DNA from: an uncultured candidate division Zixibacteria bacterium
GTDB lineage: Bacteria; Zixibacteria; MSB-5A5; GN15; FEB-12
Length of the DNA stretch: 64,000 bases
Assembly: GCA_963806185.1 (NCBI GenBank)
Contig: CAWDXE010000007.1
Coordinates: 768,001 to 832,000 of the forward strand
Direction: 5' to 3'
Under the pieces are notes generated by a model. The model was not told where the DNA came from. It saw only the letters and a list, made by a program, of their open reading frames with translations, and ran no database searches. Positions 808 to 48,682 of the stretch are shown here, one piece after another (positions within the stretch are counted from its first letter, which is position 1; each line of letters begins with the position of its first letter). The position numbers and the translations under genes are program-made.

Positions 808-2469
808 ATGAAAAAACTCATGGTGACAGCGCTCCTGGCCGCTCTTACGGCCGCAACGGGCCGGACGGCGACTATTCACGTCCCGGCCGATCAACCGACT
901 ATTCAGGCCGGCATCGATGCCGCGGTGAACAATGATACGGTTATCGTCGCGCCGGGAGAGTATTTCGAGAACATCTCCTTTCGCAATAAGACCCTTGTGC
1001 TGGCCAGTGACTATCTGGCGAGCGGCGACGTAAACGACATCCGGACAACCATCATTAATGGCAGCCAGCCAACCTACCCGGACACCGGCAGCGTTGTCAT
1101 CATGCCCGGCGGGCAGACGGGCACTACCCTCCTGGCCGGATTCACCATCACCGGCGGCACTGGGACAATCTGGCGAGATGTCTCCGACAACCTTCTGTAT
1201 CGCGAAGGAGGAGGCATACTCGTCGAAGGCGGTAATCCCAGAATCGAACGGAATATGATCATAGACAACGCGGCTGATTTTTACCCGGGCAACAGCGCCG
1301 GAGGAGGCGCCATTCGCGTTGGCTTCGGTGCGGCGTCACTGGTCGGCAATCTCATCGCCTACAATCGGGGTCGATACGGAGCCGGAGCAGTTTTCTTCTT
1401 CTCGGCCGCGGTCATCAAAAACAACATCTTTTGGAAAAATGCGGGCGGCCAGGACTTCGGTGGCGGTGGCATGTGGCTCGCCAATGGAACCGCCAACGCC
1501 GAAGTGACCAATAACACCATAGTCGCAAATACCTCCACTGGGGCAGGGGGCGGCATACTCGTGCGTGGTCAGACAGCGACCATTTTGAATTGCGTCGTGC
1601 GCGGTAACTCGGGAACTCTTGGTGCCCAAATCCGCCTCGGAACAGGAACGGCCGGCACAGATGTGCTCTATAGTGACGTGCAGGGCGGCTTTGCCGGTAC
1701 CGCCAATTGGGACGCCGATCCGCAATACGCCACTACCAACCTGCTCCTACTGTCAAGCTCTTCGTGCATCGACTCCGGTTGGAGCAGCGCGGCCTACTAC
1801 GACAAAGAAGACCCGGACAACCTCGGCTTCGCGCTTTTTCCGTCCCAAGGTGCTCGCCGTAATGATGTCGGAGCGTACGGCGGTCCCAACGCGCGATCCC
1901 TGCCTCTGTTCACCTCGGCCGAGTTTGGACTCGTTACCGATTCCATTGGCTTTACACCCACCGGGTCAGGCGATACCGCCGGCGCGTGGATTACTTTCTC
2001 GAAAATCTGGTTCGGCCCGGTGAAGATCGACAGCATTCGTTTCAAGCACACTCCGACAAATATTCTCTTTGCCAAGACGACCCTTCCACACACCACCGAT
2101 ATATCGCGCGGCCCCGACTCCGTGCAAATCGGCTGGTCTCCCGTCGCGCTTGGCGAATTGACCGACACGGCGCTGGTGTACCACAATGATTCGACCACCA
2201 TTAGTCCGTTCCAGGTCATCGTCACGGGGCAGACCGTGGGATGTTGTGTGGCCGCAACCGGCAACATCGATTGCGATCCGGGTGACAATGTCGACATCGG
2301 TGATTTGACTTCTCTTATCGACAACCTCTTTGTCACCTTTACGCCCCTCTGCTGCACTCAGGAAGCCAATTGCGACGGCGATCCCGGCGGCAATGTTGAC
2401 ATCGGCGACCTGACCTCCCTGATAGACAATTTGTTCGTGAGCTTTACACCGCTTGCGGGGTGTCAGTGA
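808..2469 (+). CDS. Secreted right-handed parallel beta-helix (pectin-lyase-like) protein with Ig-like domain and C-terminal dockerin-like tag
   Basis: Start taken at ATG 808 (MKKLMVTALLAALTAA signal peptide, AAGGA upstream). Contains TIHVPADQPTIQAGIDAA..DTVIVAPGEY, GGG/N-rich beta-helix repeats and a duplicated C-terminal VDIGDLTSLIDNLF. Confidence 0.8.
   Translation: MKKLMVTALLAALTAATGRTATIHVPADQPTIQAGIDAAVNNDTVIVAPGEYFENISFRNKTLVLASDYLASGDVNDIRTTIINGSQPTYPDTGSVVIMPGGQTGTTLLAGFTITGGTGTIWRDVSDNLLYREGGGILVEGGNPRIERNMIIDNAADFYPGNSAGGGAIRVGFGAASLVGNLIAYNRGRYGAGAVFFFSAAVIKNNIFWKNAGGQDFGGGGMWLANGTANAEVTNNTIVANTSTGAGGGILVRGQTATILNCVVRGNSGTLGAQIRLGTGTAGTDVLYSDVQGGFAGTANWDADPQYATTNLLLLSSSSCIDSGWSSAAYYDKEDPDNLGFALFPSQGARRNDVGAYGGPNARSLPLFTSAEFGLVTDSIGFTPTGSGDTAGAWITFSKIWFGPVKIDSIRFKHTPTNILFAKTTLPHTTDISRGPDSVQIGWSPVALGELTDTALVYHNDSTTISPFQVIVTGQTVGCCVAATGNIDCDPGDNVDIGDLTSLIDNLFVTFTPLCCTQEANCDGDPGGNVDIGDLTSLIDNLFVSFTPLAGCQ
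2242..2469 (+). repeat. Cys-bracketed duplicated dockerin-like module (copy 1)
   Basis: CC..GNIDCDPGDNVDIGDLTSLIDNLF..CC..EANCDGDPGGNVDIGDLTSLIDNLF..CQ. Confidence 0.8.
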
Positions 2470-2506
2470 CGAGAAAGAAGAACCCCGCTTAGTATCCTTC
2501 TCAACG

Positions 2507-2566: not shown

Positions 2567-2589
2567 ATCTCGCAGACCCTGCCGCCATG

Positions 2590-2618: not shown

Positions 2619-2632
2619 GACGAGAATGAAAC

Positions 2633-3802
2633 ATGCAGGCAGATCACACGATGAATTCAGATGAGCGGGCTCTCGCCTTTATGATGGTCAAAACCACCAA
2701 CACCGAAATCGCCGCGCGCCCTCTGGAACGACGTTGGGTGCGGGCGCTGCTTTTGGTGTTGATCTGGACATTCATTGCCGTCCTCATCGCCTCGCTCAGT
2801 CATCTCCGGATGCTGTATCTGGGGAATGAATCCCATTACTGGAAATGGCTCCTGGATTCTGTCATCGGCTGGAACGCCTGGGCCGCTCTGACTCCGGTCA
2901 TCATTTGGCTCGGTCGCAAGGTAAAGATTGAGCGCGAAGTCTGGCTGTCGCGCGCTCTCTGGCACGTCCCAATGGCCATCGGCATCGTCACTATTCGTGC
3001 CATGTTCGGCATTTTCACGTCCATGGTTGTCATGGGTGAGACGCTGACCATAGCCACTTATCTCGACCAGATGCTTCGCTATCTTATCTGGATGGCGCCG
3101 TGGGATCTGGTCATCTACGGCGGCATTCTCGGTTTCTCCTACGCCATTGAATACCGGAGGCAGCTCCGCGATCGGGAACTGGAGTCGGTACGACTCGAAG
3201 CCGCCTTATCGAAGGCCCAGCTCGATGCCCTGCATGCGCAACTGCAGCCTCATTTCCTGTTTAATACCCTGAATTCCATCTCTGTTCTTATGCAAACCGG
3301 CCGGGTGGACTCGGCCGATCGCATGCTGCGCCACCTCAGTGAGCTGCTTCGCTATGTACTCGCCAAAGGGACATTGCAGGAGGTGACTCTGGACGAGGAA
3401 ATGAAGTTCGTAAATGGTTATCTGGACATCGAACAAGCGCGCTTCGGCGCCCGATTGACCATCAACATTACTATCCCAACCGAACACCTCACTGCCCTGG
3501 TTCCAAGCTTTCTAATCCAGACTCTGGTCGAAAACGCAATCCGTCATGGCGTGGGGCCAAAGTCCGAGCCGGGTACTGTCTCGATACAGGTCAGCCGACG
3601 CGGCGACCGAATGTTGATTGAAGTTGCCGACGACGGGATCGGCATGAAGCAGGATGCCGATTCCAACTCCGGCGTAGGACTGCGCAACGCCCGCGCTCGT
3701 CTCCAGCGACTTTACGGTTCCTCGGCCACTCTCGAAATCAGCCGGCCGGAGGCAGGTGGCACTGTCGTGCGATTGGAATTGCCGTATCGGCGGGAAGAGT
3801 AG
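2633..3802 (+). CDS. LytS/YehU-family membrane sensor histidine kinase
   Basis: Several TM helices, then AQLDALHAQLQPHFLFNTLN (His_kinase H-box), LVENAIRHG, DDGIG and GVGLRN. Start codon uncertain. Confidence 0.93.
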   Translation: MQADHTMNSDERALAFMMVKTTNTEIAARPLERRWVRALLLVLIWTFIAVLIASLSHLRMLYLGNESHYWKWLLDSVIGWNAWAALTPVIIWLGRKVKIEREVWLSRALWHVPMAIGIVTIRAMFGIFTSMVVMGETLTIATYLDQMLRYLIWMAPWDLVIYGGILGFSYAIEYRRQLRDRELESVRLEAALSKAQLDALHAQLQPHFLFNTLNSISVLMQTGRVDSADRMLRHLSELLRYVLAKGTLQEVTLDEEMKFVNGYLDIEQARFGARLTINITIPTEHLTALVPSFLIQTLVENAIRHGVGPKSEPGTVSIQVSRRGDRMLIEVADDGIGMKQDADSNSGVGLRNARARLQRLYGSSATLEISRPEAGGTVVRLELPYRREE

Positions 3803-3807
3803 GCCAG

Positions 3808-4599
3808 ATGCCGGATCGCATCCGCACGCTGATTGTCGACGACGAACCTCTGGCCCGTGACGGCATTCGACACCTGCTCAGCAGTGACGATCGCTTCGAA
3901 ATCATCGGTGAATGTCAGAACGGTAAAGAAGCTGTTGCGACAATTCGCGCCGACAATCCGGCGCTGGTCTTTCTGGACATTCAGATGCCCAGTATGAGTG
4001 GAATGCAGGTGGTCTCCGCCTTGACTCCGCCCAGGCCGCTAATAGTCTTTGTCACCGCATATGATGAATTCGCCGTGCAGGCGTTCGATGTCCACGCCCT
4101 TGATTACTTGCTCAAGCCGGTCGATCCCGATCGGTTCCGCAAAACCCTGGCTCGAATAGCTGGAGCAATTCAGGAAGATCGCATCGGCCAGATCTCCGAC
4201 CGGTTGGAACAACTGGTCGGCAATCTCCAGAAGAGCGGCACCTCGCTGGATTCCAGTTCTCCGTATCTCACGCGCTTCATCATCAAGTCCGCCGGCCTGA
4301 TATACTTTGTTCAGGCCGATGATATCGACTGGATCGAAGCTGCCGACTATTACGTCCGCTTGCACACCGGCAAAAAGAACCACCTGCTGCGGGACTCACT
4401 GAATCGTCTGGAAACCCGCCTCGATCCGAACACTTTCATCCGCATCCATCGATCGACCATCGTCAACCTCAGCCGCGTCAAAGAACTCAAACCGCACTTC
4501 CAGGGCGAGTATATCGTCACGCTCACCGACGGCACCGATCTCAAGTTAAGCCGCACCCACCGCGACAAATTGCAGGCGCTGCTGGGTCAGTCAATCTGA
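3808..4599 (+). CDS. LytTR-family response regulator
   Basis: REC domain (IVDDEPLAR, FLDIQMP, VTAYDEFA, LLKP) and LytTR domain (IDWIEAADYYV, FIRIHRSTIVN). Confidence 0.95.
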   Translation: MPDRIRTLIVDDEPLARDGIRHLLSSDDRFEIIGECQNGKEAVATIRADNPALVFLDIQMPSMSGMQVVSALTPPRPLIVFVTAYDEFAVQAFDVHALDYLLKPVDPDRFRKTLARIAGAIQEDRIGQISDRLEQLVGNLQKSGTSLDSSSPYLTRFIIKSAGLIYFVQADDIDWIEAADYYVRLHTGKKNHLLRDSLNRLETRLDPNTFIRIHRSTIVNLSRVKELKPHFQGEYIVTLTDGTDLKLSRTHRDKLQALLGQSI

Positions 4600-4780: not shown

Positions 4781-6688
4781 ATGCGTAATTGGCTGACCGC
4801 CGGGCTCGTCTTAGCCCTGACCACTGCGACCCAGGCCGCCTATTTTACCAAAGTCACCAGCGGCCCGGTAGTGACCGACGGCGGCGATTCGCGCAGCGTT
4901 GATTTCATCGACTACGATAACGACAACGACCTCGACCTGTATATCACCAACGGTCCAAAGCTTGGCGCGGTCAATTTTCTCTACCGCAACAACGGTGACG
5001 GTACCTTCACGAAGGTCACTGGCGACGACGCCGTGACGGTTGCCCTTGCCTATGACGGAGCCACCTTCGGCGATTACGATAACGATGGCGACCTCGACCT
5101 CTTCGTCGCCACATGGTGGGGAAACGTCGATCTGCTCTGTGAGAATAACGGTGACGGAACCTTCACGCGTATCACCAGCGCGCCGGTCGCGACCCTGGCC
5201 GGTCACGGCGAGGCGGGAAGCTGGGCCGACTGGGATAACGACGGTGACCTCGACCTGTATGTCGCCAACTCCGGGGGAGATCTGAAAGATTTCGTCTACA
5301 TCAACGATGGCACGGGCAATTTCGCCCGCATTCTGACCGGACAACTGGCCACCGACACAGATACGAAACGCGTCGGCGCCTGGGGTGACTACGATAATGA
5401 CGGCGATCTGGACCTGTTTATAGCCACAGAATCGGCCAATCCCAACCGACTTTATCAGAACCAGGGCGGCGGCGTATTGACTCAGGTAAACGCGGGAGCC
5501 ATTACCTCAGACAACGCCTTCTGCTTCAGCGGTAGTTGGGGCGACTATGACAACGACGGCGACCTTGACCTGTTTGCCACCTCCGCCGGTTCACAGGCAA
5601 GCAATCTGTTTAATAACCAGGGGAATGGCACATTCATAGAAATTACGAGCGGCGCTCAGGTAACAGATATAGCCAATTGCGTATCGAGTGGCTGGGCCGA
5701 CATTGACAACGACGGCGATCTCGACCTGTTTGTCACCACTGGCTTTGGCAGCCTGACGCAGAAGAACCGGCTGTACATCAATAACGGAGACGGAACATTC
5801 ACGCGGGACATCACTGATCCCACCACTATCGATAACGGCTGGACCTACGGCTGCGCGTTTGGCGACATTGACCGCGACGGCGATCTCGATCTGGCTATTG
5901 CCAAATGCGCGGGTGCGGCTGAGAACAACGGCCTGTTTCTCAATGACGGTAATGCCAACCATTGGCTGGACATCCGCCTTCAGGGAATGGTGAGCAATGC
6001 AAGCGCTATCGGCGCCCGAGTGCGCGTCAAGGCTACGATCAACGGCACTCCGGTCTGGCAGATGCGTGAAATCTCGAGTCAGGACGCTTACTGTAATCAG
6101 AGCGGCCTTTCAGCGCATTTCGGACTGGGCGACGCAACTGCGGTCGATTCAATCATCATGACCTGGCCTTCGGGCATCATCCGAGTTCTCGAGAATGTAC
6201 CGGTCGACCAGTTCCTGGTCGAGGCCGAATGCGTGAGCGATCCCGACGACGACGGCGTTCTCTGCCTCGACAACTGTCCGGCCACGCCGAATCCGGGTCA
6301 GGAAGACGCCGACAACGACGGCATCGGTGATCTCTGTGACGCCTGTCCGAACGACGCCAATAACGACGTCGATGGCGATGGGCTGTGCGCCAACCTCGAC
6401 AACTGCCCCCTCGTCTTCAATCCGGGTCAGGAAGACACCAACAATGACGGCATCGGTAACGCCTGTTGCTGTATCGGCGTCACCGGCAACATTGACTGCG
6501 ATTCCGGTCAGGGTGTTGACATCGGAGATTTGACGACGCTGATTGACAACCTATTCATTACCTTCACCACCTTGTGCTGCGATACTGAAGCTAATACTGA
6601 CGGTCTGGGAGGCGTCGACATTGGCGACCTGACCGCGCTGATCGACAACCTCTTCATCACCTTCACACCGACTGTCGCCTGTCAGTAA
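4781..6688 (+). CDS. Secreted FG-GAP/VCBS beta-propeller protein (CRTAC1/ASPIC-UnbV-like) with TSP3 repeats and dockerin-like tag
   Basis: AAGGAGG SD and signal peptide. Seven D.DND.DLDL-type repeats, ASPIC/UnbV motif (NASAIGARV...AHFGLG..WPSG), DNCP..NPGQED TSP3 repeats and a duplicated VDIGDLT.LIDNLF. Confidence 0.88.
   Translation: MRNWLTAGLVLALTTATQAAYFTKVTSGPVVTDGGDSRSVDFIDYDNDNDLDLYITNGPKLGAVNFLYRNNGDGTFTKVTGDDAVTVALAYDGATFGDYDNDGDLDLFVATWWGNVDLLCENNGDGTFTRITSAPVATLAGHGEAGSWADWDNDGDLDLYVANSGGDLKDFVYINDGTGNFARILTGQLATDTDTKRVGAWGDYDNDGDLDLFIATESANPNRLYQNQGGGVLTQVNAGAITSDNAFCFSGSWGDYDNDGDLDLFATSAGSQASNLFNNQGNGTFIEITSGAQVTDIANCVSSGWADIDNDGDLDLFVTTGFGSLTQKNRLYINNGDGTFTRDITDPTTIDNGWTYGCAFGDIDRDGDLDLAIAKCAGAAENNGLFLNDGNANHWLDIRLQGMVSNASAIGARVRVKATINGTPVWQMREISSQDAYCNQSGLSAHFGLGDATAVDSIIMTWPSGIIRVLENVPVDQFLVEAECVSDPDDDGVLCLDNCPATPNPGQEDADNDGIGDLCDACPNDANNDVDGDGLCANLDNCPLVFNPGQEDTNNDGIGNACCCIGVTGNIDCDSGQGVDIGDLTTLIDNLFITFTTLCCDTEANTDGLGGVDIGDLTALIDNLFITFTPTVACQ
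6464..6688 (+). repeat. Cys-bracketed duplicated dockerin-like module (copy 2)
   Basis: CCCIGVTGNIDCD..VDIGDLTTLIDNLF..CC..EANTDG..VDIGDLTALIDNLF..CQ. Confidence 0.8.
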
Positions 6689-6710: not shown

Positions 6711-6746
6711 ATCCACGGCCGTAAGACCGGCCGTGGATGGATTTTT
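6711..6746 (+). terminator. Rho-independent terminator
   Basis: Perfect 11-bp stem atccacggccg/cggccgtggat with a 6-nt loop, followed by ggattttt. Confidence 0.7.
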
Positions 6747-6814
6747 CTGATTGCATAAATGGCGCGTTCTATCGTCTATTCCTGTATCAGCGTTTCTCGT
6801 ACAGGAGTGACCTC

Positions 6815-9217
6815 GTGCGCCGCCGTCGATCTCAGCTGTTTACTCTTGCTTGTCTCCTTCTGACCGAAGTCTGGTTGCCCGGGATGCATGCTCTGGCCGA
6901 CTCGACAGACGCCGCGCTTGTTTCCTCCGCCTATCGCACGACCGAGCACAACGTCGGGCGGCTGGCCTTTTCATTAAACAACAATGGCGGCTTTGGCGGC
7001 ATGGCCAGCCTCTCGGGCTATCGGGATTATTTCACCGGCCGTCCGGTCCGCGACGGTGAGTATCCGATCGGCAGCGGACAGTCATTCATCGGTTTTGGCG
7101 GCCTCTGGGTTGGTGCCGTGGTTGGCAATGACACCCTCGTCTCGACCACTTTCAACAGCCCCGCCTATCAGAAGAATGGTCAAAACCAACCGGCGGTGGA
7201 GCTATTTGAGTTTCAACCCGGCGGCGACGGTGAAGAATCTCTGCAGAAGCGATCTACCCTCGCCCACGATTCAGGCGCTGTCTCCCATCAGGACATTCAA
7301 GCTATCTATGCCGATACGTGTACGACTTGTTTTCCGCAAACAATCGACTGGAAAGACAATCGCCCGCATCGACCCTTGGGAGTCGAAGTACGCCAGCAAT
7401 CATACGCGTGGACATATCCATGGGCTGATGCTGTCATCCTGATCGCTTACACCATCAAGAATGTGAGCACCAGCCAGCTTTCCAACCTCTTTGCCGGAAT
7501 CTACGTCGATGGCGACGTGGTCAATCGCGAGTATGCACCGCTTCGATACACCGATGACATGACCGGAATCCGATGGGTGACGACAAACAGTTCCTCGTGC
7601 CTGGCTGGGGATTCTATACTGATAGCGTGGATAGCTGATAACGACGGCGACGATTCTACTTGTGGCGGCATGTACACCCTTCCGCACGCATTAGCCGTTT
7701 CGGTACTGCAGGCTGACGGCGGCGCCGGCCTGCGCAGTTGTAATTGGTGGGTGACCGGAAGCAACGGCGACGATTTCGGCCCGCGCCGTCGCTCCACCGG
7801 CTCTGAACCGTATCGTGACTTCGGCACTGGCAACACCGGTGTCCCCTATGGCGACAAAACCAAATACTATATGCTCAGACACCGTGAATTCGATCACTCT
7901 CAATACTACACCAAAGCAATTGCGACCAACGATTCGCTCTGGTCGTACGTGCCGGATCGGAATCTGGCTTCGCGCGTCACCGTAGGCGGGGATATCCGGG
8001 TGCTCCTGTCAGTCGGCCCCTGGCAACTGGCGCCGGGGGAGGAGGCCTCCTTCGCGGCCGCCTTTATCGGTGGCGAAAGCCTCTTTACGAGTTGCGGCAT
8101 TCCCACCGGCCTGCCCGACCAGCCCGCGGCCTATGTCGCTCGCTTGAACTTCTCCTCGTTGGACGACAACACCGGGATTGCCTCGCGCATACTCGACGTT
8201 CCGGGCGTTGACTCGGATAGCGATGGCTACGCCGGCACCTTCATTGTATGCGATGCTGAGACTACCTGGACCGGCGGTGACGGCCGACCGGATTATCTCG
8301 CCGACGTCCCGCCGGTGCCGCCGATTGTCTCGGCCAATCCCATTGATGGCGGCTTTCGAGTTCGCTGGAACGGCGGTCCGTCGGAATTGCGGCCGGATCC
8401 GATCAGTCGCCGGGCTGATTTTGAAGAGTATCAAGTTTTGCTTGGTGCTGACTCCGCGAGTGAATTTACCGTCATCGCTACCTGGGACCTCGACGATTAC
8501 GTCAAGGAAGTGTGGCATCCGTCGACCGGTTCCTGGTGGTCCGATAATCTACGGTTGAGCGGTGACTCACTCCGTTGTCTGTACGCCCCACAGGGATGTG
8601 CTGACTCCGACTGGGATGCGGCCAGTTTCACGCGCATGTTGCCATTGCACCATCCCCAGTATTCCGATTCAATCTTCGCCTTTGCCCCGATCGGAAGAAA
8701 CGCCAAACTTGGCGAGACTACGGCGATACGAAAGCGATTCCCCGACGCGCCCAGGCCGGCGTATGCACGACCGTCGCTTGTGCCCCCGGAATCGACCCAG
8801 GTGTATCTCACCGATGCCGGTCTGTTCCGGTATTATGAATACGAAATGTACAGAGTCGGTTTGCCGGAAGGCGAGACCTGTTACGTAGCCGTCACGGCGG
8901 CCGACATCGCCTTCCCCGGACTGAATGAGCAACCCCGGGTATCGTCTCCGTCTGCCACCGTCCGCCCAGTGGCCGTTCCAATCCGATTGTGCTGTGCGGA
9001 AACAGTGGGCAACGTCGATTGCGATGAATTCGACGTCACCGACATCGCCGATCTGGCTGCCCTGGTGAATAATTTGTTCGTGGAGTTCTCACCGCCCTGC
9101 TGTTATCGAGAAGCCAATTGTGACGGCATCCCCGGTATTGACATCGGCGATCTGTCTGCGCTGATCAACCATCTCTTTATCTCCGGTGCGCCCCTGCCGA
9201 CCTGCGCTTCGGAGTGA
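6815..9217 (+). CDS. Large secreted protein of unknown function with FN3-like region and C-terminal dockerin-like tag
   Basis: Start moved to GTG 6815 (AGGAG SD), because ORF-track start 6737 lies inside the terminator. Signal-like N-terminus, HNVG...NNG.FG...EYP.GSG...GGLWVGAVVG.DTLVS motif and a C-terminal GNVDCD..DIADL/IDIGDL duplication. Confidence 0.75.
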   Translation: MRRRRSQLFTLACLLLTEVWLPGMHALADSTDAALVSSAYRTTEHNVGRLAFSLNNNGGFGGMASLSGYRDYFTGRPVRDGEYPIGSGQSFIGFGGLWVGAVVGNDTLVSTTFNSPAYQKNGQNQPAVELFEFQPGGDGEESLQKRSTLAHDSGAVSHQDIQAIYADTCTTCFPQTIDWKDNRPHRPLGVEVRQQSYAWTYPWADAVILIAYTIKNVSTSQLSNLFAGIYVDGDVVNREYAPLRYTDDMTGIRWVTTNSSSCLAGDSILIAWIADNDGDDSTCGGMYTLPHALAVSVLQADGGAGLRSCNWWVTGSNGDDFGPRRRSTGSEPYRDFGTGNTGVPYGDKTKYYMLRHREFDHSQYYTKAIATNDSLWSYVPDRNLASRVTVGGDIRVLLSVGPWQLAPGEEASFAAAFIGGESLFTSCGIPTGLPDQPAAYVARLNFSSLDDNTGIASRILDVPGVDSDSDGYAGTFIVCDAETTWTGGDGRPDYLADVPPVPPIVSANPIDGGFRVRWNGGPSELRPDPISRRADFEEYQVLLGADSASEFTVIATWDLDDYVKEVWHPSTGSWWSDNLRLSGDSLRCLYAPQGCADSDWDAASFTRMLPLHHPQYSDSIFAFAPIGRNAKLGETTAIRKRFPDAPRPAYARPSLVPPESTQVYLTDAGLFRYYEYEMYRVGLPEGETCYVAVTAADIAFPGLNEQPRVSSPSATVRPVAVPIRLCCAETVGNVDCDEFDVTDIADLAALVNNLFVEFSPPCCYREANCDGIPGIDIGDLSALINHLFISGAPLPTCASE
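8990..9217 (+). repeat. Cys-bracketed duplicated dockerin-like module (copy 3)
   Basis: CCAETVGNVDCD..DIADLAALVNNLF..CC..EANCDG..IDIGDLSALINHLF..C. Confidence 0.75.
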
Positions 9218-16175: not shown

Positions 16176-16185
16176 GGGGGAGATC

Positions 16186-20187: not shown

Positions 20188-20188
20188 T

Positions 20189-24678: not shown

Positions 24679-24906
24679 CTACTGACAGGCGGGAAGTGGG
24701 GCGAAGGTGATGAACAGATTGTTGATCAACGCCGTGAGATCACCCACATCGACGCTGTTCGTCGGGTCACCATCGCAATTCGCTTCAGCCTGACAGCACA
24801 GTGGGTCAAAGGTAATGAAGAGATTGTTGATGAGCGCCGTCAGGTCGCCGATATCGACTCCGTCGCCCGCGCTGCAATCAACATTCCCAACTGCGCCAAT
24901 ACAACA
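24679..24906 (-). repeat. Cys-bracketed duplicated dockerin-like module (copy 4)
   Basis: CCIGAVGNVDC..VDIGDLTALINNLF..CC.AEANCDG..VDVGDLTALINNLF..CQ. Confidence 0.8.
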
Positions 24907-26037
24907 GCCGCCGGCATGCAACCCGTGCGGTCCCGCCCCGGTCGGTACCACGCCGTGGCAAACCGCGCACGTATTGAGCGTCCCGGCATGCCCCTGCAAG
25001 GCGATATTCTGCACGTTGTCGCGCGCATTTCCGCTCGGCACAATCGCGTGCGGCTCACCGTGACAAGCACTGCAGAATAATCCGCCATGCCCGCGCGATT
25101 CCCGAAATAGCTTCCCCGGCTCCTCCGCATATGTCGCACCGTGGCAGGACGACGCCCCGCACGACGGTTCCTGCAACCAGGGATTCCGGCCGCTGCTGAT
25201 ACTTTCACCTACCTGAGTCACCGACCCGTGGCACATCTGGCAGGTAAACCCATGTTGGGTTTTCATGACATCGCGCAGACACTGCGTATTCGGTCCGGGG
25301 TGGCACTTGTAACAATCGTTGGTCCGCTCACCGTGCGCCTTGTGAATGGCTTCGGACAAGGAGGGTACGCCCGGCTTGCCCGGCGTCCCCAGTGCATTCG
25401 ATGAATGGCAGATCGCGCAGAGTATCGGCGTCTGCGTCGGATCAAACCCGGCTTCTCCGGCGTGTAGGTCCAGAATTCCCTGGGCGCTTGCGTGGCAGCC
25501 GGAACTGACGCAATTGATTTCATTTGACACCGGTACCACGGGCGGTGCTGTCCCCAACAAATTGCTCGACAAATCGTACGCCTTCAACAAGCCCAGTTGA
25601 AATGGATCCTCGTGCGTCAAGTCGGCGTCGGTGTACGGAGTGACGGGGACGCCACTGATGAAGAAGTGATCGCCCGCCGTCGGTACCATCTCGCCTGATA
25701 ACCCGTGCCCGGTCAGGCCGACATTCGGAGGCAGGTCAACGCCGAATATGGCGTAGTCGTAATCCCAGAAATTGGTTTTCCCGACCGAGTATGTGTTACC
25801 CGGTATTTCATACGTCACATGAACTCCGGTCGTCAGGATAACCGGCAGGTGGGTGGAATCGCCTACCTGTATCACCTGGGCTCGAACATTGTTGTACGGT
25901 GGCAATACGACAAAGGTGGAAAAGTCAAGATTGCTGCAATGCATGCCGAGGTCGTTCCACCCAATGACCACATAGTCGGCGGCAAACAACGGGGAGCATG
26001 CCACCACGAAGATGATTGCCAGGAAAACCCTCTTCAT
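24679..26037 (-). CDS. Secreted multiheme c-type cytochrome with C-terminal dockerin-like tag
   Basis: Signal peptide MKRVFLAII; WNDLGMHC N-domain; five CXXCH (CAICH, CYKCH, CQMCH, CSACH, CAVCH) and two CX4CH (CVSSGCH, CGASSCH); duplicated VD.GDLTALINNLF. Confidence 0.88.
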   Translation of the reverse strand: MKRVFLAIIFVVACSPLFAADYVVIGWNDLGMHCSNLDFSTFVVLPPYNNVRAQVIQVGDSTHLPVILTTGVHVTYEIPGNTYSVGKTNFWDYDYAIFGVDLPPNVGLTGHGLSGEMVPTAGDHFFISGVPVTPYTDADLTHEDPFQLGLLKAYDLSSNLLGTAPPVVPVSNEINCVSSGCHASAQGILDLHAGEAGFDPTQTPILCAICHSSNALGTPGKPGVPSLSEAIHKAHGERTNDCYKCHPGPNTQCLRDVMKTQHGFTCQMCHGSVTQVGESISSGRNPWLQEPSCGASSCHGATYAEEPGKLFRESRGHGGLFCSACHGEPHAIVPSGNARDNVQNIALQGHAGTLNTCAVCHGVVPTGAGPHGLHAGGCCIGAVGNVDCSAGDGVDIGDLTALINNLFITFDPLCCQAEANCDGDPTNSVDVGDLTALINNLFITFAPLPACQ

Positions 26038-28619: not shown

Positions 28620-28622
28620 GGT

Positions 28623-30412: not shown

Positions 30413-30421
30413 GGGAATCCC

Positions 30422-31630: not shown

Positions 31631-31633
31631 CGG

Positions 31634-32596: not shown

Positions 32597-32621
32597 GTAT
32601 CAGGATGAGCGCTGTGCCGTG

Positions 32622-34665: not shown

Positions 34666-34736
34666 AGGCGCGCTCCTTTCATGTATCAGATCATGGTAAA
34701 CAAGGAGGGGTAATAGCGCAAATTCAATGCGCTGCT

Positions 34737-39852: not shown

Positions 39853-40401
39853 ATGCCTCAATCTATCGCACAACTCTGGTCAGGCATTCTGGATGGCAAT
39901 CCGCGCTCGTGGGAGGAGATGGTCCGCCGCTTCAATCCGCTGGTTGTCGCCGCCGCTCGGGCTCACGGTCTTGCGGCGGTGGATTTGGAGGATTGTGCCC
40001 AGCAGACCTGGTTGGCCCTCTACACCGGCCGGGCACACATCAATGATCCCCTGGCCATACCGACATGGCTCGTCACCGTCGCCAAACGCAAAGCGCAACG
40101 CCTGCAAATAAGACAGAAGGCCGGAACCACCGCAGAACAGGAATTCAACCCGGAAGCCAACAGCGTCTCACCCGAAGATTTATATGTCAAGGCGCTCGAG
40201 GCGGCACGCCTCCATATCGCCCTCGAGCTGTTGGACAGCCGCTGTGCCCGCCTGCTCAAGCGATTGTTTCTGGCATCGGAAGAATATACGTACCAGGAAA
40301 TTGCCGAAGAATTACGGATCGCGCCCAACAGCCTCGGCCCAATCCGCTCCCGCTGTCTGGCCCGGTTGCGCAAAATCCTGAGTGAACTTGATCACGGATA
40401 G
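39853..40401 (+). CDS. ECF RNA polymerase sigma factor
   Basis: 182 aa. Region 2 (W..MV.RF..LV, EDCAQQTW, WLVTVAKR) and region 4 (YQEIAEEL...SLGPIRSRCL.RLR). Confidence 0.9.
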   Translation: MPQSIAQLWSGILDGNPRSWEEMVRRFNPLVVAAARAHGLAAVDLEDCAQQTWLALYTGRAHINDPLAIPTWLVTVAKRKAQRLQIRQKAGTTAEQEFNPEANSVSPEDLYVKALEAARLHIALELLDSRCARLLKRLFLASEEYTYQEIAEELRIAPNSLGPIRSRCLARLRKILSELDHG

Positions 40402-40491
40402 TACTAACTCCCTTTGAGCCGGTACTTATTGAATGACTGGCCTGATCGCATACGACGGTCCGAGCCACGCCCGCGAAACGAGACCTGATTT

Positions 40492-41055
40492 ATGACAAAT
40501 GCCACCAAACATCCCTCGAGACAGGCGCTTCACCGTCACCTGCAAGTTGCCGAATCCAGCATCTCCCGGCATCTGAAAAGTTGCGAAGACTGCCGACTAA
40601 TTGTCCACTCAATGCGCCACCTTATGGCTGTTGACGATCAGGCGGCCGACCGGGCCCGCCGGGAGTCTCTGGTGCAAAGCATCTTGAGTGTGCCGGCACT
40701 CTCCGCTCCTCCGGCAGGCCGCCCGCGCCTCGCTCCAATTGTGCGGGATTCGTGGCAATCCGCCATGGTTGCCCAATTGCGTCACGCCGCTCACGGGGTA
40801 GAAAGACGCCTGAGATTCCACGTCGGCGACATTACCGTCGACCTCGTCGCCGATCGTCTCGGCGACAAGTGGAACTGCTCTATGCGCATCAGCCGCCGGG
40901 GACGGTCCGTCTCTCAATTCGCGGCCAGCCTCGGCAAGCGGAAGATGCTGCCGGTCGACGTCGGCTTCTTCTCCTGGGTGGCCAAACGCCCGCCTAAGCA
41001 AATTCGACTATGGTCTTCCGATTCGAAAATCCTCCTGGAGACCATACCGTGGTAG
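40492..41055 (+). CDS. Putative soluble zinc-finger (ZAS) anti-sigma factor
   Basis: HLKSCEDC = Hx3Cx2C at 40570-40593; no TM helix; directly downstream of the ECF sigma. Confidence 0.7.
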   Translation: MTNATKHPSRQALHRHLQVAESSISRHLKSCEDCRLIVHSMRHLMAVDDQAADRARRESLVQSILSVPALSAPPAGRPRLAPIVRDSWQSAMVAQLRHAAHGVERRLRFHVGDITVDLVADRLGDKWNCSMRISRRGRSVSQFAASLGKRKMLPVDVGFFSWVAKRPPKQIRLWSSDSKILLETIPW

Positions 41056-43820
41056 CCTCACGCCCAAAGCTCAGTCTGGCTGCCCGGCGCTTCCTGGACG
41101 GCGGGGGAATCCCGTCCGATCCATCGGCCATGATCCGGGAATGCGACACTTATGTCCGGAAATACACCCAGGTTGACCTGGTCAAAGCCAGAACCCTGGC
41201 CCACCAGTTTGTTCTCCGAACCCGCACCCTGCCACCAGCCGACCGGGCCACCGCACTCCGCGCCCTTGGTTGGACCTGCCAAGTGGGTGCCGCCTATCGG
41301 GAAGCCGAATCCGCTTACCTCAAAGCCCGCAAGCTGGCTGGAAACGACACCGATCTGCGCGCTCGTATCGACCGCATTCTCATCGATGTATATATGTATC
41401 TGGGCGACTACCGCGAAGCCGTCCGTCGGGCGCGCATCGCCATCGCCGCTTTTCGCCGTTTGCACGACCGCGACGGAGAAGCCAAGACCCTCGTTAATCT
41501 CGCCAACGTGTTCCATCGTCAGGATCGGCACGTCGATGCCCTGCGGCTGTATCGAAAAGCCGCCCGGCACTACGAAAATACAAGTGACAAGCTCACCTTG
41601 GGTGTGTGCAGCTACAATTGTGCCAACTGTCTGGTGCAGTTGCTCCAGTTTGACGAGGCCGATGCTCTCTATCGGAGCGCCGAACGGCTGTTTGGCGAGG
41701 TCGAGTATGGCCTCTATGTCAACGAGGCCAGATACGGCCGCGCCTGGTTGGATAAGCTCCGGGGCAATTATCACCTCTCCCTCCGCGCCCTCGCCGAATG
41801 CGAGGAGGAATATCGAAAGATTGGTCAGCCGAAGGGGGTGACGCTCTGCCAGCTCGATCGTGCCGAAGTCATGCTCGAATTGCAGCTCCTCTCTGATGCC
41901 CGGGCCCTTGCTAAAGATGCCGAAAAAAGCGCTCGAAAACTCAAGATTCAGTATGAGGCTGCCAAAGCCGCGCTCTTCCTGGCGAAAGCTGCCTTCGGCC
42001 TCGGGGCAAATCGCGAGGCACAGGAGGCTCTCAGGCGCGCCCGCATTGGCTTTGAATCGGTTAAGAACGATACCATGGTCGGTGTCAGTCGATTCTATGA
42101 CGCCCTGTATCACGACGGTGAATCCAGCCTGGCTGAACTCGACTCGACTCGACGGCTGTTCCATTCCGCCCAATTGCCCCTCTGGCAGGCGGTGTGTGAT
42201 CTGACGTCAATGGCCATACGCGCGCCCCGATATGATGCGGCTACCCTTCAACGATTGGCGAAAAATCCCGCCGTTTCCTCCGTCCCGCACCTCTACGCAG
42301 GATGGAAAACACTTCTGGGTGATCGTTCGCTGAGTCGCCACGACCTCACCGGCGCCAAGCGCAACTGGACCCGGGCGGCCGATGCGCTTGATAAAATGCG
42401 GGCCAAACTCCCGCCCGTTGACATGCGTCAAACCCTGACCGAAAAAAGCCTGGATCCGTACAAGCGTATGTTTGGCCACGAAATGACTCGCCACCCCGAG
42501 GCGGCCGCCATTTGGTCCGAACGAAGCAAGATTGCGGGCATCTGGACATACGATCAATCGGCCGACCTCCCCGACGCTCGACGCAAAGTCGCCGACCGTC
42601 TGGCCGAATTGGCCCAACATGTCACGGCGCTCTCGTCATCGCTCGAACGAACCAGGGGAGAGGCGGCCGGCCAACTCTGGCCGACCGACAATCGATTCTG
42701 CCGACTGCAGGCTGAAATCAGACGTGACCTTCTGGCCGCGCACGAAAGCGACTTTTCCGTTGCCGGTACGCATAACACAATCAGGGATACCATCCGCGAT
42801 GCCTCAACGGTCAATCCTCTGGTGCAATTCCACATGGACGATGATCGACTGGTGGCCTTTGTCCATCAGCGAGGTGTCACTCGCACACACATCTACCCTG
42901 ACTCGCAGCGTATGCTGACCCGCTTTCTCGGTCAGTGGAATGTTCTGCTCATCAATACTGTCGCCCGGGGGCAACGGCAGCGTCTGGCCGACCGGGACGA
43001 GGAGACCCGCCTGCTAACCATGCTCGGCGACTGGCTCTGGAGACCGCTTGAGCTACCCTTGGATTGCCCACAAGTCACCATTATTCCAACCGGCGAGATG
43101 GCCAGTCTGCCTTGGTCAGCCATGATTGTCGATGGCTCTGCACTCATCGATCGTCATCGCTTCACCCTGGCTCCCAGTATCAGCCATTTTGCGGCTTCCG
43201 CCCGGTTTAGAATTACCAGCCGCTCAGCCCGAATCTTTGTGGGCGATACCAGCGGCCTCAAGTATGTCGCCGATGAACTCTCCGCCGTGTCACCGCTCCC
43301 CGCTGTCGACCTCGACGTCTGTCGACCATGCCTCCGGGAGAACTGGCCCCTGTCCGGAGAACATCTGCTCTGGCACTACATCGGCCACGCGCAATTTCGC
43401 GGCGATAATCCGTTTTATTCTTCACTCCTGCTGGAAGACGGCCCGATCTTCGCGGCCGATTTCCGACTGCGTTCCTGTCGGGTCGGCCTGGTCACCCTGG
43501 CCGCCTGCCGTACCGGCGTGCAATCGTCCGTGCCCGCCTACGAATCGACCGGCCTGGTACGGTCCCTCCTTGAAATGGGAGCGCAAAACGTCCTCGCCAG
43601 CCACTGGTCGGTGGGTGACCGCCCCACCGCCGACTGGATGAGGACCTTCTATGCTTTACTTGGCAACGGCCATACCCTGTTGGACTCCACACGCCTCACC
43701 ATTCAACGCATGCGCGAGATGTACCCGTCGGCCGGACAATGGGCCGCGTTTTCCCTGTTTGGTGCCGGTCGTGATGCCTGGGATAAGAATTTCTTCAAAA
43801 GAGATATGAGGAGAATGTGA
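41049..43820 (+). CDS. TPR-CHAT (caspase/separase-like clan CD) protease
   Basis: N-terminal TPR repeats; [18 protein letters not shown] (His 43386); [18 protein letters not shown] (Cys 43506); [16 protein letters not shown]. Probable GTG start overlapping the upstream stop. Confidence 0.9.
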
Positions 43821-43822
43821 TC

Positions 43823-46800
43823 ATGCGTGCCAATCGATCAGTCAGTTGGTTGATCCCTCTGCTGGTGTTGCTTCTGGCGGCTACGGGAACGACCGGGGAG
43901 CACAATCCCTTTATCGTTGGACAACTGGTACTCAAGATGTTATCGGGCGGAGACGTCAACGCTCTGGCTCAGCAGTACAATCTGGACCTTCGACAACATT
44001 TGCCCCAAATTGACGTCTACCAGGTAGACGCAACGCCGGGTGCCGACCTCGATTCACTGTCGGCAGTGATCTCGGCGCAATCCGACGTCGAGTTCTGCCA
44101 TCCCAACTATGTGCTGGATCCACTGCGATCCGTGCAGAGCAGCCTGCCGATCTCCGACGACAAAGCCTTGCCTGACTATGAATCGCAGGGGTCGGTGAGT
44201 CGTCTCCAATTGACCGAGGTACATACTCTCACCACCGGTCAGGGAGTCAAGGTCGCCATTCTTGACGGCGGCGCCGAATTCTCCCATCCATTGATTTCCG
44301 GGGTCGTTCTTTCCGGCTATGATTATGTTGATGACGACGCCGACGCGTCCGACGTACCCGGCGGCAACAACTACGGCCACGGTACCTTCGTCGCCGGTAT
44401 CGTGCATCTCGTGGCCCCCGACGCACAAATCGTCGTCTACCGCGTCAGTGACCCCCAAGGCGAAGGGAATGGGTATATCGTCGCCGAGGCCCTCCTTCAG
44501 GCCGTTGCTGACGGCTGCAAGATTATCAACATGAGCATGGTCGTGCATGGATACCACATGGCTATCGCCAAGGCTGTCGAGTACGCCCGCGATCACAATG
44601 TCCTGGTCGTGGTCGCCGCCGGCAATGATCAGGAAAATCAAGGTGTTTTCCCGGCCGATCATCCGGACGTACTTTCGGTTCTGGCCGTCGACACGGCCGA
44701 TCACCTGTCCACTTTCTCAAATTACGGCAGCCATATCGACATCGCCGCCCCCGGCGAGCTGGTGGTAGGGCCTTACCACAGCGGTAAGTATGCGTTGTGG
44801 GGTGGAACGAGCTTTGCCGCGCCGTTCGTCGCCGGACAAGCGGCGTTGATCCTGTCGCTTGTGCCAAACATTCCCTGGAACAACCTCTTCCAGACCATCG
44901 TCAATTCCGCGGTCAATATCGATCTTAACAACCAGGGGTACGAGGGTCAACTGGGAAGCGGCCTGACCAATCCGCTCGGTTCGGTACAACAGGTCGAGCC
45001 TACCGACCTCCTGCACTTCGTGTGCTGGCCGGTGAGCAGCGGGGGAAATGGGCACTGGTATGGTGCGATCCCCGACCTGTTAAATTGGGACTCTGCCCGT
45101 CAACGGGCTACCACATACTCGTACGGGGGGTTCACGGGCCATCTCGCCACAGTCAATACGCCCGCCGAGAATAATTTCATCTATCAGCAGGTAATGGTCG
45201 GACTGACGCCAGGGTCGGTCCTTGAACAATACTTCCTCGGATCCCGGCTGGTCAACGGCCAGCGAACCTGGATAACCGGTGAGCCGTTCACGTATTCCAA
45301 TTGGGCGCCGGGAGAACCTGGTGGCGGCTTCAGCGAACCAGGATCTGCGATGTGGGGAAGCACGAATACTGCCGCCAATCGGACCCCCGGTACCTGGAAT
45401 GACGTCGCCATCGACCAAACATCCAGCAATTATCTCTATTTGGGGATAGTTGAATTCGGCGACACAGTTGACACCGACCCATTTGATTCCAGTGCTGTTT
45501 GCGGTAATGTCAACATGGATTTGCTCGGCCTGGTGGACACGGCCGACGTCTCAGCGCTCATGTCCTACCTCCACAAGGACTTGTCACTTAGTATCTCGCC
45601 AACAGCCGCTAATGTCGACTTGAGTGTGAACCTCGATAACAATGACGTCGTCGTGCTGGCCGATCATGTATACGGCGCCCACAATCCGCTGACGTGCGCG
45701 CCGACCTTCGTCGGTAACTACCCCCAGAACACTGCTGACGTGATCACGATCAGCCCCCTGACCATCACTCCGCCGTATGCGGCAAGGGTTGTTGCCGAAG
45801 TCACGTTCACTGCCAGCGAACCGTTCCGGGGTCTTTCCTTCACCTTTGAATACGGGTCTTACGGCAACTACGGATACCTCTCGAGCATCACGCTGCATGA
45901 TTCCGCCGACCAATGCATGACCGGAATCTTCCCGAACACCCACAACGGCGCGATTGCCCTGCTGGAACAAGACACCGACTTACCCGCCGGTGAATACCAC
46001 ATTGCCACGCTGGTCTTTGACAACGTCGTAGGGCCCTCACCGCAAATATTCCTCGATACGACCACCCTCAGCCGTGGCGCTCGAGTCGTGGTTTCTCGGC
46101 AAGGCGGACTCGTGTCTACAATTCCGGAGATCCTCGGCCGCAATCCTGGTTTCGACCTCGACGGTGACGGTGTCCCGGACGCTACCGACAACTGCGCGGT
46201 AAGAGCCAACCCGGATCAGCTTGACGGCGATAACGATGGGGTCGGTGATGCCTGCGATCCCGACTTCGTCTGTGGCAACATCGACTGTGATTTGACGCTC
46301 GACCTCAGCGACCTTGCTAGATATATCGATTACCTGCATTTCGGAGGTCCCTCCGACATATGTGAATCGGTGGCTGACCTCGATCAGTACGTCGGCCTCA
46401 CGAACAATGACATTGTCGCTTTCATTCGCTGGATTTTTGTCACCTTCGAACCCCTGCAGTGTTCGCCTACTCTCCTGGGTTCATTTCCGGTCGACCCCGG
46501 CGATATCCTGACGATTGGTGATCTTAACGTTCCGCCGAATACACCGACGTGGGATGTGCCACTCATGTTCACCGCCAGTGCTCCATTCGACGCCCTCGCC
46601 TTCCCCTTTGTCTACTCCTCAACCGGAGATCAAGCCGTCCTGTCTTCAGTCACGGTAGTTATGGGAGACCAAATGGAAGTTGGCCGGGCGTTCCCCGCCA
46701 CCCATTCCGGAACCGTTGCCTTCTCTTCGTTTCAAAATGACTTTGCTGCGGGGTCATATCTCATCGGGACGCTCCATTTCACCAATACGAGCTCACCCAC

Positions 46801-48682
46801 CGGCATGCAGATCACGCTCGACTCGACCACCAATTCTCGCGGGAGCACAACGGTGGTGTCGCGCGATTGGGGAGTGCTGCCAAGCATTCCGTCACTGCGG
46901 GCCTACGACCCGACACTTGACTGGGACGGCGATGGTGTCGGCGGGACGACGGACAACTGCCCTTTGGTCGCCAACCCGGATCAATCCGATCGGGATCATG
47001 ACGGCGTCGGCGATGCCTGCGACGAATGCCCGGATCTCGTCAACCCCTGCGCCGTTGTCTGCGGACTCACGGGCGACGTTACGCTCGACGGCAACGTCAA
47101 CATCGGCGATCTCACCTATCTGGCCGACTACCTCTATCTCGGTGGTCCTGCCCCGGTGAATCCGCTTACTGCCGACTGTGACAATGTGGCCGGCATAACA
47201 CCTCGCGACCTCGTGGTGCTCAACGGGTACCTCTTCGCGCACACCACGACACTATCCTGCCCGCCGAGTTCCGCGACCTATCCGCCAACCGATCCTTCGA
47301 TCGTCCTGCGACTGCCCAGCCTGCTTCCTGCGGGTGTGTCGCAGCTCGCCTGTCCGCTCTGGCTGGAGGCGCCGGTTGACGTCGTGTCCTTCAATCTCCC
47401 GCTCCAGGTGCGCGTGGGCGATGAAGTACCGGTTATCGATTCCTTCGTGCAATCGCCCTTCTTCAAAGCAACGACCGCGTGGATCATGAAGCCGGAGGAT
47501 CTGTTTTCGACCAAAGCCGACTCCGGAATCGCCCTGATTGCCGGTTCAACCGCCATGGTATCCGACCTGTCCTTGCCGGCCGGAAGCAATTTGCTTGGCA
47601 CCCTTTATATCACGGTCACGGCGAACGACAGTGATCGCACCGTCTCCGGTTCCTGGGGCCTCATGTACCCGCAGCATCCGCTGCCCGTTAGCTATCCCGA
47701 GGTCGGCTTGTTGCCGCAGATCGTGGGCAAAGGGGGACCATCGTTGGCCAAGCCGCTTGACCAGCTCGCCGTCATCTACACGCAATATACGCCGACGCTG
47801 ATCGAGGATCCCGGCTGCTGCCTCGGCATCAGAGGCAACGTCGATTGCGACCCGGCTGACAACATCGACATCGGCGACCTTACCTGCTTCATCCAGGGTC
47901 TGTTCCTCTTCGGCGAGGGTGGAGGATGTATGTGCTGCCTTGAAGAGGCCGACGTGAACAGGGACAACGGCGTTGACATCGCCGATCTTACCGACCTGAT
48001 ATGCTACCTCTTCTTGGACTGTGATCCTCCGCCGTCCTGTGGACCCGTCGCTCTCGGACTTGTCCCGGCTGCGAAAGTGCAGGCTGGCGTGACAATCAAC
48101 ACCGAATATGCCGACGGCAAGACCACCGTAACTCTTTCCTCCGACGTCGATCTCCTCGGTGTTCAACTCACACTTCCCGGTTCGTCGCTCGGCAAAGCGC
48201 AATCACGATCGCCGGAGGGCATGGAACTCTACCAGGGCACTTGGGACAATAGGACGCACATTGGATTATTGGATATGGAGGGAAAGCTCTCCTGGAGCCC
48301 AGGCAATCACACGCTGCTGGTCATCGACGGTGAGGCGACGATTACCGAAGCTATTGTGGCCGATCTGAATCACCATTCCTGGACCGCCGAGACTTCTTCC
48401 TCCAGGTCGTCGGTGCCGGCAACATTCTCATTGGCGCAGAACCACCCCAATCCGTTTAACCCGGCAACGACCATTGAGTTCAGTATTCCCAAACCCGCGC
48501 ACGTTGAACTGTCCGTGTACAACGTGAGCGGGCAATTGGTCGCCGTGCTCGTCGATCGGGAACTGCCGGCCGGCGCCCAGTCACTCGATTGGAACGCTTC
48601 CGCGCTCGCGAGCGGTGTGTACGTCTATCGCCTGACCACGCGCGATTATTCGGCGACGCGCAAGATGATTCTGCTCAAATAA
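43823..48682 (+). CDS. Secreted S8 subtilase with C-type lectin, dockerin-like, cohesin-like and TSP3 modules and T9SS-type C-terminal domain
   Basis: GAGGAG SD and signal peptide. Triad VAILDGG / HGTFVAG / GTSFAAP; lectin ([17 protein letters not shown]); four GN/GD.D...D..D EF-hand pairs; C-terminal [15 protein letters not shown]...ASGVYVYRL...KMILLK. Confidence 0.9.

Follow-up and report, generated by a model that had tools for sequence, protein, structure and literature searches.

Dockerin-tagged proteins in Zixibacteria and a candidate cohesin adaptor of the type IX secretion system

Why would five otherwise unrelated exported proteins, encoded close together in one bacterial genome, carry the same Cys-rich module? 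This question is raised by a stretch of 64,000 nucleotides from an uncultured candidate division Zixibacteria bacterium (assembly GCA_963806185.1, contig CAWDXE010000007.1, positions 768,001 to 832,000; hereafter the window, meaning the whole stretch). In it, a module of about 75 residues ends a beta-helix protein, an FG-GAP propeller, a protein of 826 amino acids (aa) and a multiheme cytochrome, and lies inside an S8 protease. [quoted passage not shown] A longer chain of events, in which the dockerin replaces the CTD, binds a cohesin-CTD adaptor in the periplasm, and the cargo is co-exported by the T9SS and held at the surface, is proposed here tentatively and with less than even confidence.

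A dockerin tag on unrelated cargos

A preliminary description of the window had reported five copies of the module, all of which translate at the positions below; four of them, which it also placed at the extreme C-terminus, stop 0-2 residues short of the stop codon, and a Pfam scan of the window proteins bore out what it said of their hosts. The copies are 50-73% identical to the first one at the protein level and 56-73% identical among themselves at the DNA level, so they are not recent duplicates. The C-terminal copies were recognized by translation, by an in-genome hidden Markov model (HMM) and by alignment of the copies; that of the cytochrome, the only one on the - strand, was chosen for the fold and complex predictions.

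751..2469, + strand: beta-helix protein, tagged cargo (572 aa, signal-peptide-like N-terminus; PF13229, Beta_helix)
2242..2466, + strand: dockerin tag at the C-terminus of the beta-helix protein
4781..6688, + strand: protein with FG-GAP propeller, ASPIC/UnbV and TSP3 (635 aa; Pfam), tagged cargo
6464..6685, + strand: dockerin tag at the C-terminus of the FG-GAP protein
6737..9217, + strand: 826-aa protein, tagged cargo (no Pfam family matched)
8990..9214, + strand: dockerin tag at the C-terminus of the 826-aa protein
24679..26037, - strand: predicted seven-heme cytochrome c, tagged cargo (452 aa; c7-like; five CxxCH and two CX4CH motifs)
24682..24906, - strand: dockerin tag at the C-terminus of the cytochrome
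47816..48046, + strand: Cys-rich dockerin tag inside the S8 protease, followed by a further module and then a CTD

That the module has a dockerin-like architecture, as the preliminary description proposed, is backed by both profile and fold comparisons. While a search of the PDB with one tag as a single sequence gave 0 matches, with a profile of 142 sequences the first nine rows were chains that bear a dockerin (best E 0.003). The predicted fold of the cytochrome copy (predicted local distance difference test, pLDDT, 92.7), with helices at residues 23-35 and 58-70, returned dockerins in the top ten Foldseek rows, the highest of them of type I and led by 4fl4_A (probability 0.99, TM 0.72, root-mean-square deviation, rmsd, 1.7), at E-values of only ~0.05 for this small domain. 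Eight residues, N/D12, D14, D22 and D25 in one half and N/D47, D49, D57 and D60 in the other, are 87-100% conserved over the 142 sequences, and we take them to be the Ca-ligand loop positions 1, 3, 9 and 12 of dockerins. The first loop is two residues longer than in PDB dockerins. None of the five window copies reached the gathering score of Pfam Dockerin_1, a model that under-detects the tags of this lineage: among 48 paralogous proteins five scored above the cut-off and six more below it, and the source genome (G000) gave 19 matches as opposed to 92 open reading frames (ORFs) with the in-genome HMM. The strict pattern CC-x4-GN..CC holds for the window copies but fails as a general signature, fitting just 36 of 99 domains; it is therefore a lineage variant of a broader family.

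Both halves of the tag share the motif D-I-G/A/S-D-L-T-x-L-I-D-Y/N-L-F/Y across ~90 cargos. Dual-binding dockerins have symmetric halves and are bound by their cohesin in two orientations. By analogy, the shared half-motif suggests one binding specificity and two orientations, such that a single cohesin type would accept all of the cargos either way round. The cysteines, too, follow a pattern: over 106 dereplicated rows, the occurrence of C15 is tied to that of C41 (59/3/0/44, p 1e-26) and the occurrence of C5 to that of C42 (85/3/1/17, p 1e-15), and this pairing leaves C6 for the invariant C78. The covariation thus points to three disulfides, putatively C5-C42, C15-C41 and C6-C78, in keeping with the disulfide stabilisation suggested earlier. 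Directly after one tagged gene (C1:1046009; such coordinates give contig and position in the source genome) lies C1:1048895-1050709, which encodes a membrane N-terminus and two Thioredoxin_4 domains; its product presumably resembles VKOR-DsbA and is a candidate disulfide catalyst.

How far the tag extends beyond the window was addressed by the genome-wide count that the preliminary description had called for. The genome, 3.65 Mb in size and 82% complete, was searched at the ORF level with an HMM iterated from the five window copies, and 92 ORFs proved to hold 99 domains between them; a control search of reversed ORFs gave no match lines at a reporting threshold of E 10. In 86 of the 92 carriers the tag ends within 15 residues of the stop; the remaining six comprise four with the tag near the N-terminus, the S8 protease and one weak partial match. 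A signal-peptide heuristic was positive for 76 of the 92 carriers, for 43 of 55 CTD proteins and for 875 of 2312 other ORFs, and it is crude, scoring 38% of background ORFs and missing obvious cases (window 4781). By Pfam, the cargos include peptidases (S8, M1, M6, M12, M43 and C10), beta-propellers, Ig/PKD repeats and a cytochrome, along with many proteins without a family; a scan of 48 genome and 5 window carriers, of the 92, found no glycoside hydrolase.

Tail exchange and a candidate cohesin partner

The source genome encodes a T9SS core, with SprA (TIGR04189, 543 bits against 200), PorU (NF033707, 654 against 420) and seven ORFs over the NF033709 cut-off of the PorV/PorQ family; SprA was found in all 121 sampled genomes of the phylum. 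One 862-aa PorV-family ORF, with PorV-like ends around an insert, directly follows PorU (L129:10066-12651, equal to C4:250065-252650). Of the 55 ORFs that end in a CTD, a single one, the S8 protease of the window, is among the 92 tagged ORFs, whereas a crude pool of exported proteins would lead one to expect ~6.7 (Fisher p 0.009).

Tag and CTD also replace each other on homologous proteins, and did so in all three cargo families tested. Homolog tails were classified with the tail left out of the query, the beta-helix and cytochrome sets being the best 120 matches. Of the best 119 beta-helix homologs, 37 have a dockerin tail and 82 a CTD tail (61 by HMM or motif and 21 Bacteroidota-type tails by eye), and none has both. 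Among the best 119 cytochrome homologs, 114 have a C-terminal dockerin, two a dockerin and a longer tail, two a CTD and one neither; the two CTD-ending cytochromes, 72-74% identical, switch tail at the same junction. The 50 homologs of the 826-aa protein divide into 16 with a dockerin, 26 with a CTD (3 strong type A, 23 weak), one with both and seven others. In-genome paralogs swap tails as well: tagged C1:445070 and CTD-bearing C6:38697 are 64% identical over 225 aa. Having a dockerin or a CTD tail, the cytochrome is therefore a candidate surface electron-transfer protein. It is also unusually conserved, with nearly all of its best 119 homologs 72-83% identical and 5238 proteins matching at E<=1e-30. 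About 30 homologs of the 826-aa protein (P0255-P0290) carry a divergent CTD-like tail with weak or no type A HMM score, which may represent a sorting class of its own that PorV paralogs serve.

These patterns indirectly support the earlier idea that the tag serves for export, in that tag and CTD are near-exclusive and swap on homologs; the tag is probably not itself read as the sorting signal, its fold being helical and four carriers having it close to the N-terminus. A beta-sandwich sorting domain at the extreme C-terminus is not what we found, the model being helical and 6 of the 92 tags not C-terminal.

A tag of the dockerin type calls attention to cohesins. Pfam Cohesin matches the source genome seven times, six of them in CTD-bearing ORFs, and an in-genome cohesin HMM widens the set to 15 ORFs with at most 2-3 cohesin-like modules each, in a genome that is 82% complete and may hold divergent cohesins missed by the search. 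The main candidate is a 30-kDa protein encoded at C7:884801-885637, ~53 kb beyond the window, which combines a signal peptide (judged by eye), a cohesin fold and a type A CTD (TIGR04183, 48.7 bits against a cut-off of 23); we refer to it as the adaptor. Its cohesin model (pLDDT 91) retrieved cohesins in the top Foldseek rows (E 1.8e-7 to 5lxv), and in VIA the top 19 rows were cohesins, with Z 14.3, rmsd 2.9 and 139 residues aligned for 4uyp_A as compared to Z 10.3 for the best non-cohesin. By sequence, the protein scored 20.3 bits against Pfam Cohesin, short of the gathering cut-off of 24.1, and its cohesin gave no significant match in the PDB. The preliminary description had envisaged docking on a cell-surface scaffold. 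Its non-cellulosomal cohesin partner in a diderm finds a candidate here, but this is a single-cohesin CTD protein encoded elsewhere in the genome and not a multi-cohesin scaffold.

The adaptor was matched in 45 of 45 sampled genomes of the family (39-59% identity), and exactly one match at E<=1e-25 was present in 94 of the 121 phylum genomes. The CTD motif occurs in 28 of the 30 nearest adaptor loci; among 20 distant matches that were fetched, 13 have cohesin and CTD and seven cohesin alone. Conserved proteins with a signal peptide, a cohesin and no CTD (C1:385498-386205; L179, L181-L186) are possible periplasmic caps, chaperones or dockerin competitors. Both a sigma-70-like promoter and a strong, terminator-like hairpin were seen at the adaptor gene, neither far above shuffle counts. 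Contigs from RNA libraries of four studies, in which DNA is not excluded, span the gene at ~97-100% identity and end near the hairpin, a weak hint of a monocistronic transcript; the genes on either side have no long cover, which carries no weight as evidence. A predicted complex of the adaptor cohesin, the cytochrome tag and two Ca scored 0.36 against 0.01 for the best control, a pass that is weak at this level, with runs agreeing in >=98% of contacts and a partner pLDDT of 88. The mark it passed was reached by 116 of 157 solved pairs and by 2 of 215 mismatched pairs.

Across the phylum, the tag profile matches 111 of the 121 genomes, 88 of them at least 43 times in a count that was capped at ~47. 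The closest relatives of the tag in GTDB genomes are mostly from Candidatus Zixiibacteriota, with others in third-party annotation (TPA) assemblies labelled Ignavibacteriales and in three stray bins, and named cargo homologs are mostly from Zixibacteria. Several of the assemblies labelled uncultured Ignavibacteriales (L021, L023, L024 and others) hold many close tag copies and may be Zixibacteria under another label. The presence and absence of tag and adaptor, which looked near-perfect, was dropped as evidence, Pfam Dockerin_1 matching 119 of the 121 genomes.

A second dockerin class was also observed, comprising seven ORFs of which six have a CTD and the seventh is frameshifted beside one; its occurrence in CTD-bearing proteins only is reminiscent of the type I/type II split.

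C6:191450, C6:194464, C1:744471, C2:3572, C7:366320, C6:113629 and C6:86868: ORFs of the second dockerin class

At C6:174174-198784 (L001, L013, L206), cohesin, dockerin and CTD genes surround the gene of a 3037-aa Ig-repeat protein that ends in a dockerin, several of the ORFs being frameshifted, probably through assembly errors. Comparable clusters occur in three other genomes (G085, G067, G028).

Possible routes to the cell surface

The tag stands in for a signal that serves export as well as anchoring, and on the simplest reading it regains both by binding a cohesin-CTD protein before export. A signal peptide would take the cargo across the inner membrane; the dockerin would fold with Ca2+, in a putative role, and with three disulfides, as its predicted fold and paired cysteines suggest; and one cohesin type might accept all tagged cargos in either orientation. 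The partner could be the single-copy, apparently monocistronic adaptor, whose binding is weakly predicted by the complex model. By analogy with the T9SS of Bacteroidota, SprA and a PorV-family shuttle would then read the adaptor CTD and export the complex, and PorU would anchor it. Extended to the phylum, this would amount to a two-tier T9SS, in which one small cohesin-CTD shuttle binds any dockerin-tagged periplasmic protein, exports it via SprA and displays it, a generalisation to which we give slightly less credence than to the chain itself.

A number of observations weigh against co-export through this adaptor. Carriers of up to 3037 aa, 15 of the 92 exceeding 1000 aa, would be a large load, and the T9SS account in PMC10994853, in the text available, gives direct CTD recognition only and no co-export of a bound partner. 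GldM (TIGR03517) was not found in any of five genomes in a search that had no positive control. The beta-helix tree needs just two tail changes, one of them forced by starred branches, and because of this the swap in that family may be one old event. As for the complex prediction, only 18 of the 157 solved pairs passed at scores of 0.60 or below, together with both false passes; the pass may stem from likeness to solved textbook cohesin-dockerin pairs; and the prediction covered one of at least seven candidate anchors, since at least six other CTD-bearing cohesin-like proteins of the genome, two of them frameshifted in the assembly, could be the true partners. CTD-bearing cohesins other than the adaptor include C8:25778, C7:619805, C6:191450, C7:205953 and C7:527109. 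The genomes without an adaptor ortholog add to these points. Of 30 dockerins fetched from five of them, 23 are C-terminal without a CTD, four are followed by a CTD, two are otherwise placed and one is open, such that our prediction that dockerins would occur only in cis where the adaptor is absent was wrong. Three adaptor-negative families (f9, f14 and f11) encode cohesin-CTD proteins of their own, in arrays; co-occurrence hence tracks one ortholog only, and the design is general. In favour of an exchange of dockerins for CTDs, CTD candidates number 81-239 (median 141) in the 12 adaptor-negative genomes, which have 0-24 Pfam dockerin matches, and 27-98 (median 54) in the other 109, these being first-look counts from four families that are not independent; family f7, with the adaptor, few detected dockerins and few CTDs, breaks the reciprocal trend. 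Where recognition putatively takes place, dockerins of f9 and f14 (L148-L177) carry another motif (V-N-G-L-D-V, G-A/S-D-V), which suggests lineage-specific codes.

The source genome further contains two secretin loci, a PilQ locus and an ambiguous one resembling the type II secretion system (T2SS), and these bear on the main rival of co-export, namely separate export followed by docking. Here, the cohesin-CTD protein would leave through the T9SS, and the cargo would leave through the T2SS-like or PilQ secretin or in vesicles and be captured at the surface, as in Gram-positive cellulosomes. Large complexes would not have to be threaded through SprA, some secretin is present in 121 of 121 genomes (the locus at C7:566k includes PilB/GspE, PilC/GspF, two pilins and a PilM-like gene), and the scheme is close to the model inferred, in the part of the account available, for Ca. 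Stygibacter (PMC8542988). Yet no T2SS-like secretin ortholog turned up in 19 of the 121 genomes, 14 of which have at least 45 dockerin matches, and G066 and G090, both with 0 Pfam dockerin matches, do have one; moreover, each clean CTD-dockerin swap on an unrelated cargo would demand a new second export signal. We regard surface capture alone as rather unlikely, if a serious contender.

More remote are two readings that dispense with a cohesin-CTD partner as the means of export. Were the dockerin itself a new T9SS sorting signal read by a PorV-family paralog, with cohesins secondary, the C-terminal position of 86 of the 92 tags, their near-exclusivity with CTDs and the seven PorV/PorQ-family ORFs would all fit. 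The predicted fold is helical, however, whereas the CTD is a beta-sandwich (title of PMC4804311); in four carriers the tag sits near the N-terminus and in one internally; and single-copy conservation is seen for a CTD protein of cohesin fold. This we consider the least probable of the rivals. Slightly better, and still improbable, are the chances that tagged proteins stay in the periplasm or self-assemble there via CTD-less cohesins and cohesin-dockerin adaptors, or that the module is a Ca2+-stabilising cap without a partner in trans. Signal-peptide, cohesin-only proteins do exist (C1:385498 and 7 of the 20 fetched distant matches), as do many cis cohesin-dockerin proteins, and a heme cytochrome could work in the periplasm; against this, homologs of the same cargos bear T9SS CTDs, which marks these families as outer-surface or secreted, and a uniform symmetric motif over ~90 unrelated proteins exceeds what a stabilising cap would need. 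Docking on CTD-anchored cohesins thus remains the reading that we favour, and co-export by the T9SS the tentative account of how the cargo gets there.

Window context, known systems and meaning

The S8 protease is the only protein of the genome with both tag and T9SS CTD. One module had been reported in it; the in-genome HMM instead finds four dockerin-like repeats.

43817..48682, + strand: S8 protease (1621 aa)
45473..45700, + strand: internal dockerin-like repeat 1 (52 bits, in-genome HMM)
45734..46096, + strand: putative cohesin-like module 1 (in-genome cohesin HMM)
46244..46465, + strand: internal dockerin-like repeat 2 (58 bits, in-genome HMM)
46499..46861, + strand: cohesin-like module 2 (in-genome cohesin HMM, whose training set includes the module itself)
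47042..47263, + strand: internal dockerin-like repeat 3 (65 bits; Pfam Dockerin_1 22.5 bits, cut-off 22.9)
47273..47803, + strand: weak cohesin-like module 3 (18.8 bits)
48446..48670, + strand: T9SS type A CTD (PF18962, 35.9 bits; TIGR04183, 40.8 bits)

Three times over (45473-47803), a dockerin is followed ~10 residues on by a cohesin-like module, and the same internal order occurs at least once each in C4:31636, C7:142178 and C4:288224; such pairs may form a cis-locked or adaptor unit. A cohesin identity is not supported for the module that separates the S8 tag from the CTD, which scores <0 bits against both cohesin HMMs. An in-genome paralog of the catalytic region (C1:884000, 45% over 350 aa) has a tag at its end and no CTD. 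The protease gene closes an apparent operon (39853-48682) with an ECF-type sigma factor, a small putative anti-sigma factor and a TPR-CHAT protein. Elsewhere in the window, a LytS-type kinase and a LytTR regulator lie between two tagged genes (2633-4599), an ordinary gene pair for bacterial alpha-2-macroglobulin and PBP1C adjoins tagged genes (10692-18525), and a polysaccharide locus (26375-36293) encodes a methyltransferase, a pyruvyl transferase, GT2s, an ABC-2/Wzt exporter and a PMT-family glycosyltransferase.

Among described systems, the nearest likeness is with Ca. Stygibacter (Cloacimonadota), for which a cellulosome-like complex was inferred from genomes (Williams et al. 2021, PMC8542988). 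According to the part of that account available, it is likewise a diderm, with signal-peptide proteins that bear C-terminal dockerins, S8 and other peptidases included, and a cohesin protein whose CTD would attach it to the surface; both systems are inferred from genomes only. Its described components, one 3,755-aa scaffoldin with multiple cohesins and carbohydrate-binding modules and a handful of named enzymes, contrast with the 92 carriers of our source genome, their cytochrome cargo, the single-cohesin CTD proteins and the absence of glycoside hydrolases from the carriers annotated; section 7 of the account takes up neither how dockerin proteins are exported nor any swapping of CTD and dockerin. 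Numerous dockerin proteins whose functions are not fibrolytic are also described for anaerobic methanotrophic (ANME) archaea (PMC9012536) and rumen Bacteroidetes (PMC6487960). In the text available, neither account draws a link to the T9SS, and the former gives ANME multi-cohesin scaffoldin-like proteins and no outer membrane.

In the type A T9SS of Bacteroidota, each substrate attaches through a CTD of its own to PorV within the cavity of SprA, and this CTD is the first part to exit (Lauber et al. 2024, PMC10994853, in the part available). The source genome shares SprA, PorU, PorV-family proteins and type A CTDs with that system; it differs in that most of its candidate surface proteins lack a CTD and in that GldM, the motor, went undetected in the search that had no positive control.

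Clostridial type I cohesin-dockerin pairs (PDB 4fl4, 4dh2, 5nrk, 4uyp, 3ul4) resemble both predicted folds, in the duplicated Ca-loop and helix and in the symmetric halves, and the single-cohesin anchors OlpA and OlpC of C. thermocellum likewise join one cohesin to an anchoring module. Identity to the clostridial pairs is 16-24% for the tag and 9-18% for the cohesin, and, apart from the longer first loop, the differences are up to three putative disulfides, an outer membrane to cross and non-cellulolytic cargo. Cellulosome anchors are of the SLH or sortase type; here a T9SS CTD takes their place. The system works like single-cohesin anchoring of cellulosomes but is no cellulosome by its cargo, in which the plant-wall glycoside hydrolases typical of cellulosomes were absent from the carriers scanned.

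Our searches, outside of which lay subscription papers and supplements, found no literature pairing Zixibacteria with dockerins or with type IX secretion, and none of the titles and abstract openings listed dealt with this system or with T9SS piggy-back of a bound partner. The present analysis contributes an adaptor conserved in single copy, the swapping of tails, a disulfide pattern and comparisons of secretins and of CTD load. The docking idea has published precedent, and the value therefore lies in the export route. If a two-tier T9SS does operate, ~90 proteins per genome, among them proteases, adhesins and a multiheme cytochrome, would be secreted without a sorting signal of their own, which would mean piggy-back secretion through the T9SS and a plug-and-play display system for Gram-negative cells. 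It would also explain the many Zixibacteria entries named only 'dockerin type I domain-containing protein' and would place the conserved cytochrome at the cell surface, with a bearing on extracellular electron transfer. Cohesin-dockerin pairing would then reach beyond the assembly of Gram-positive cellulosomes, to a diderm phylum in which a single export signal serves the greater part of the surface proteome.

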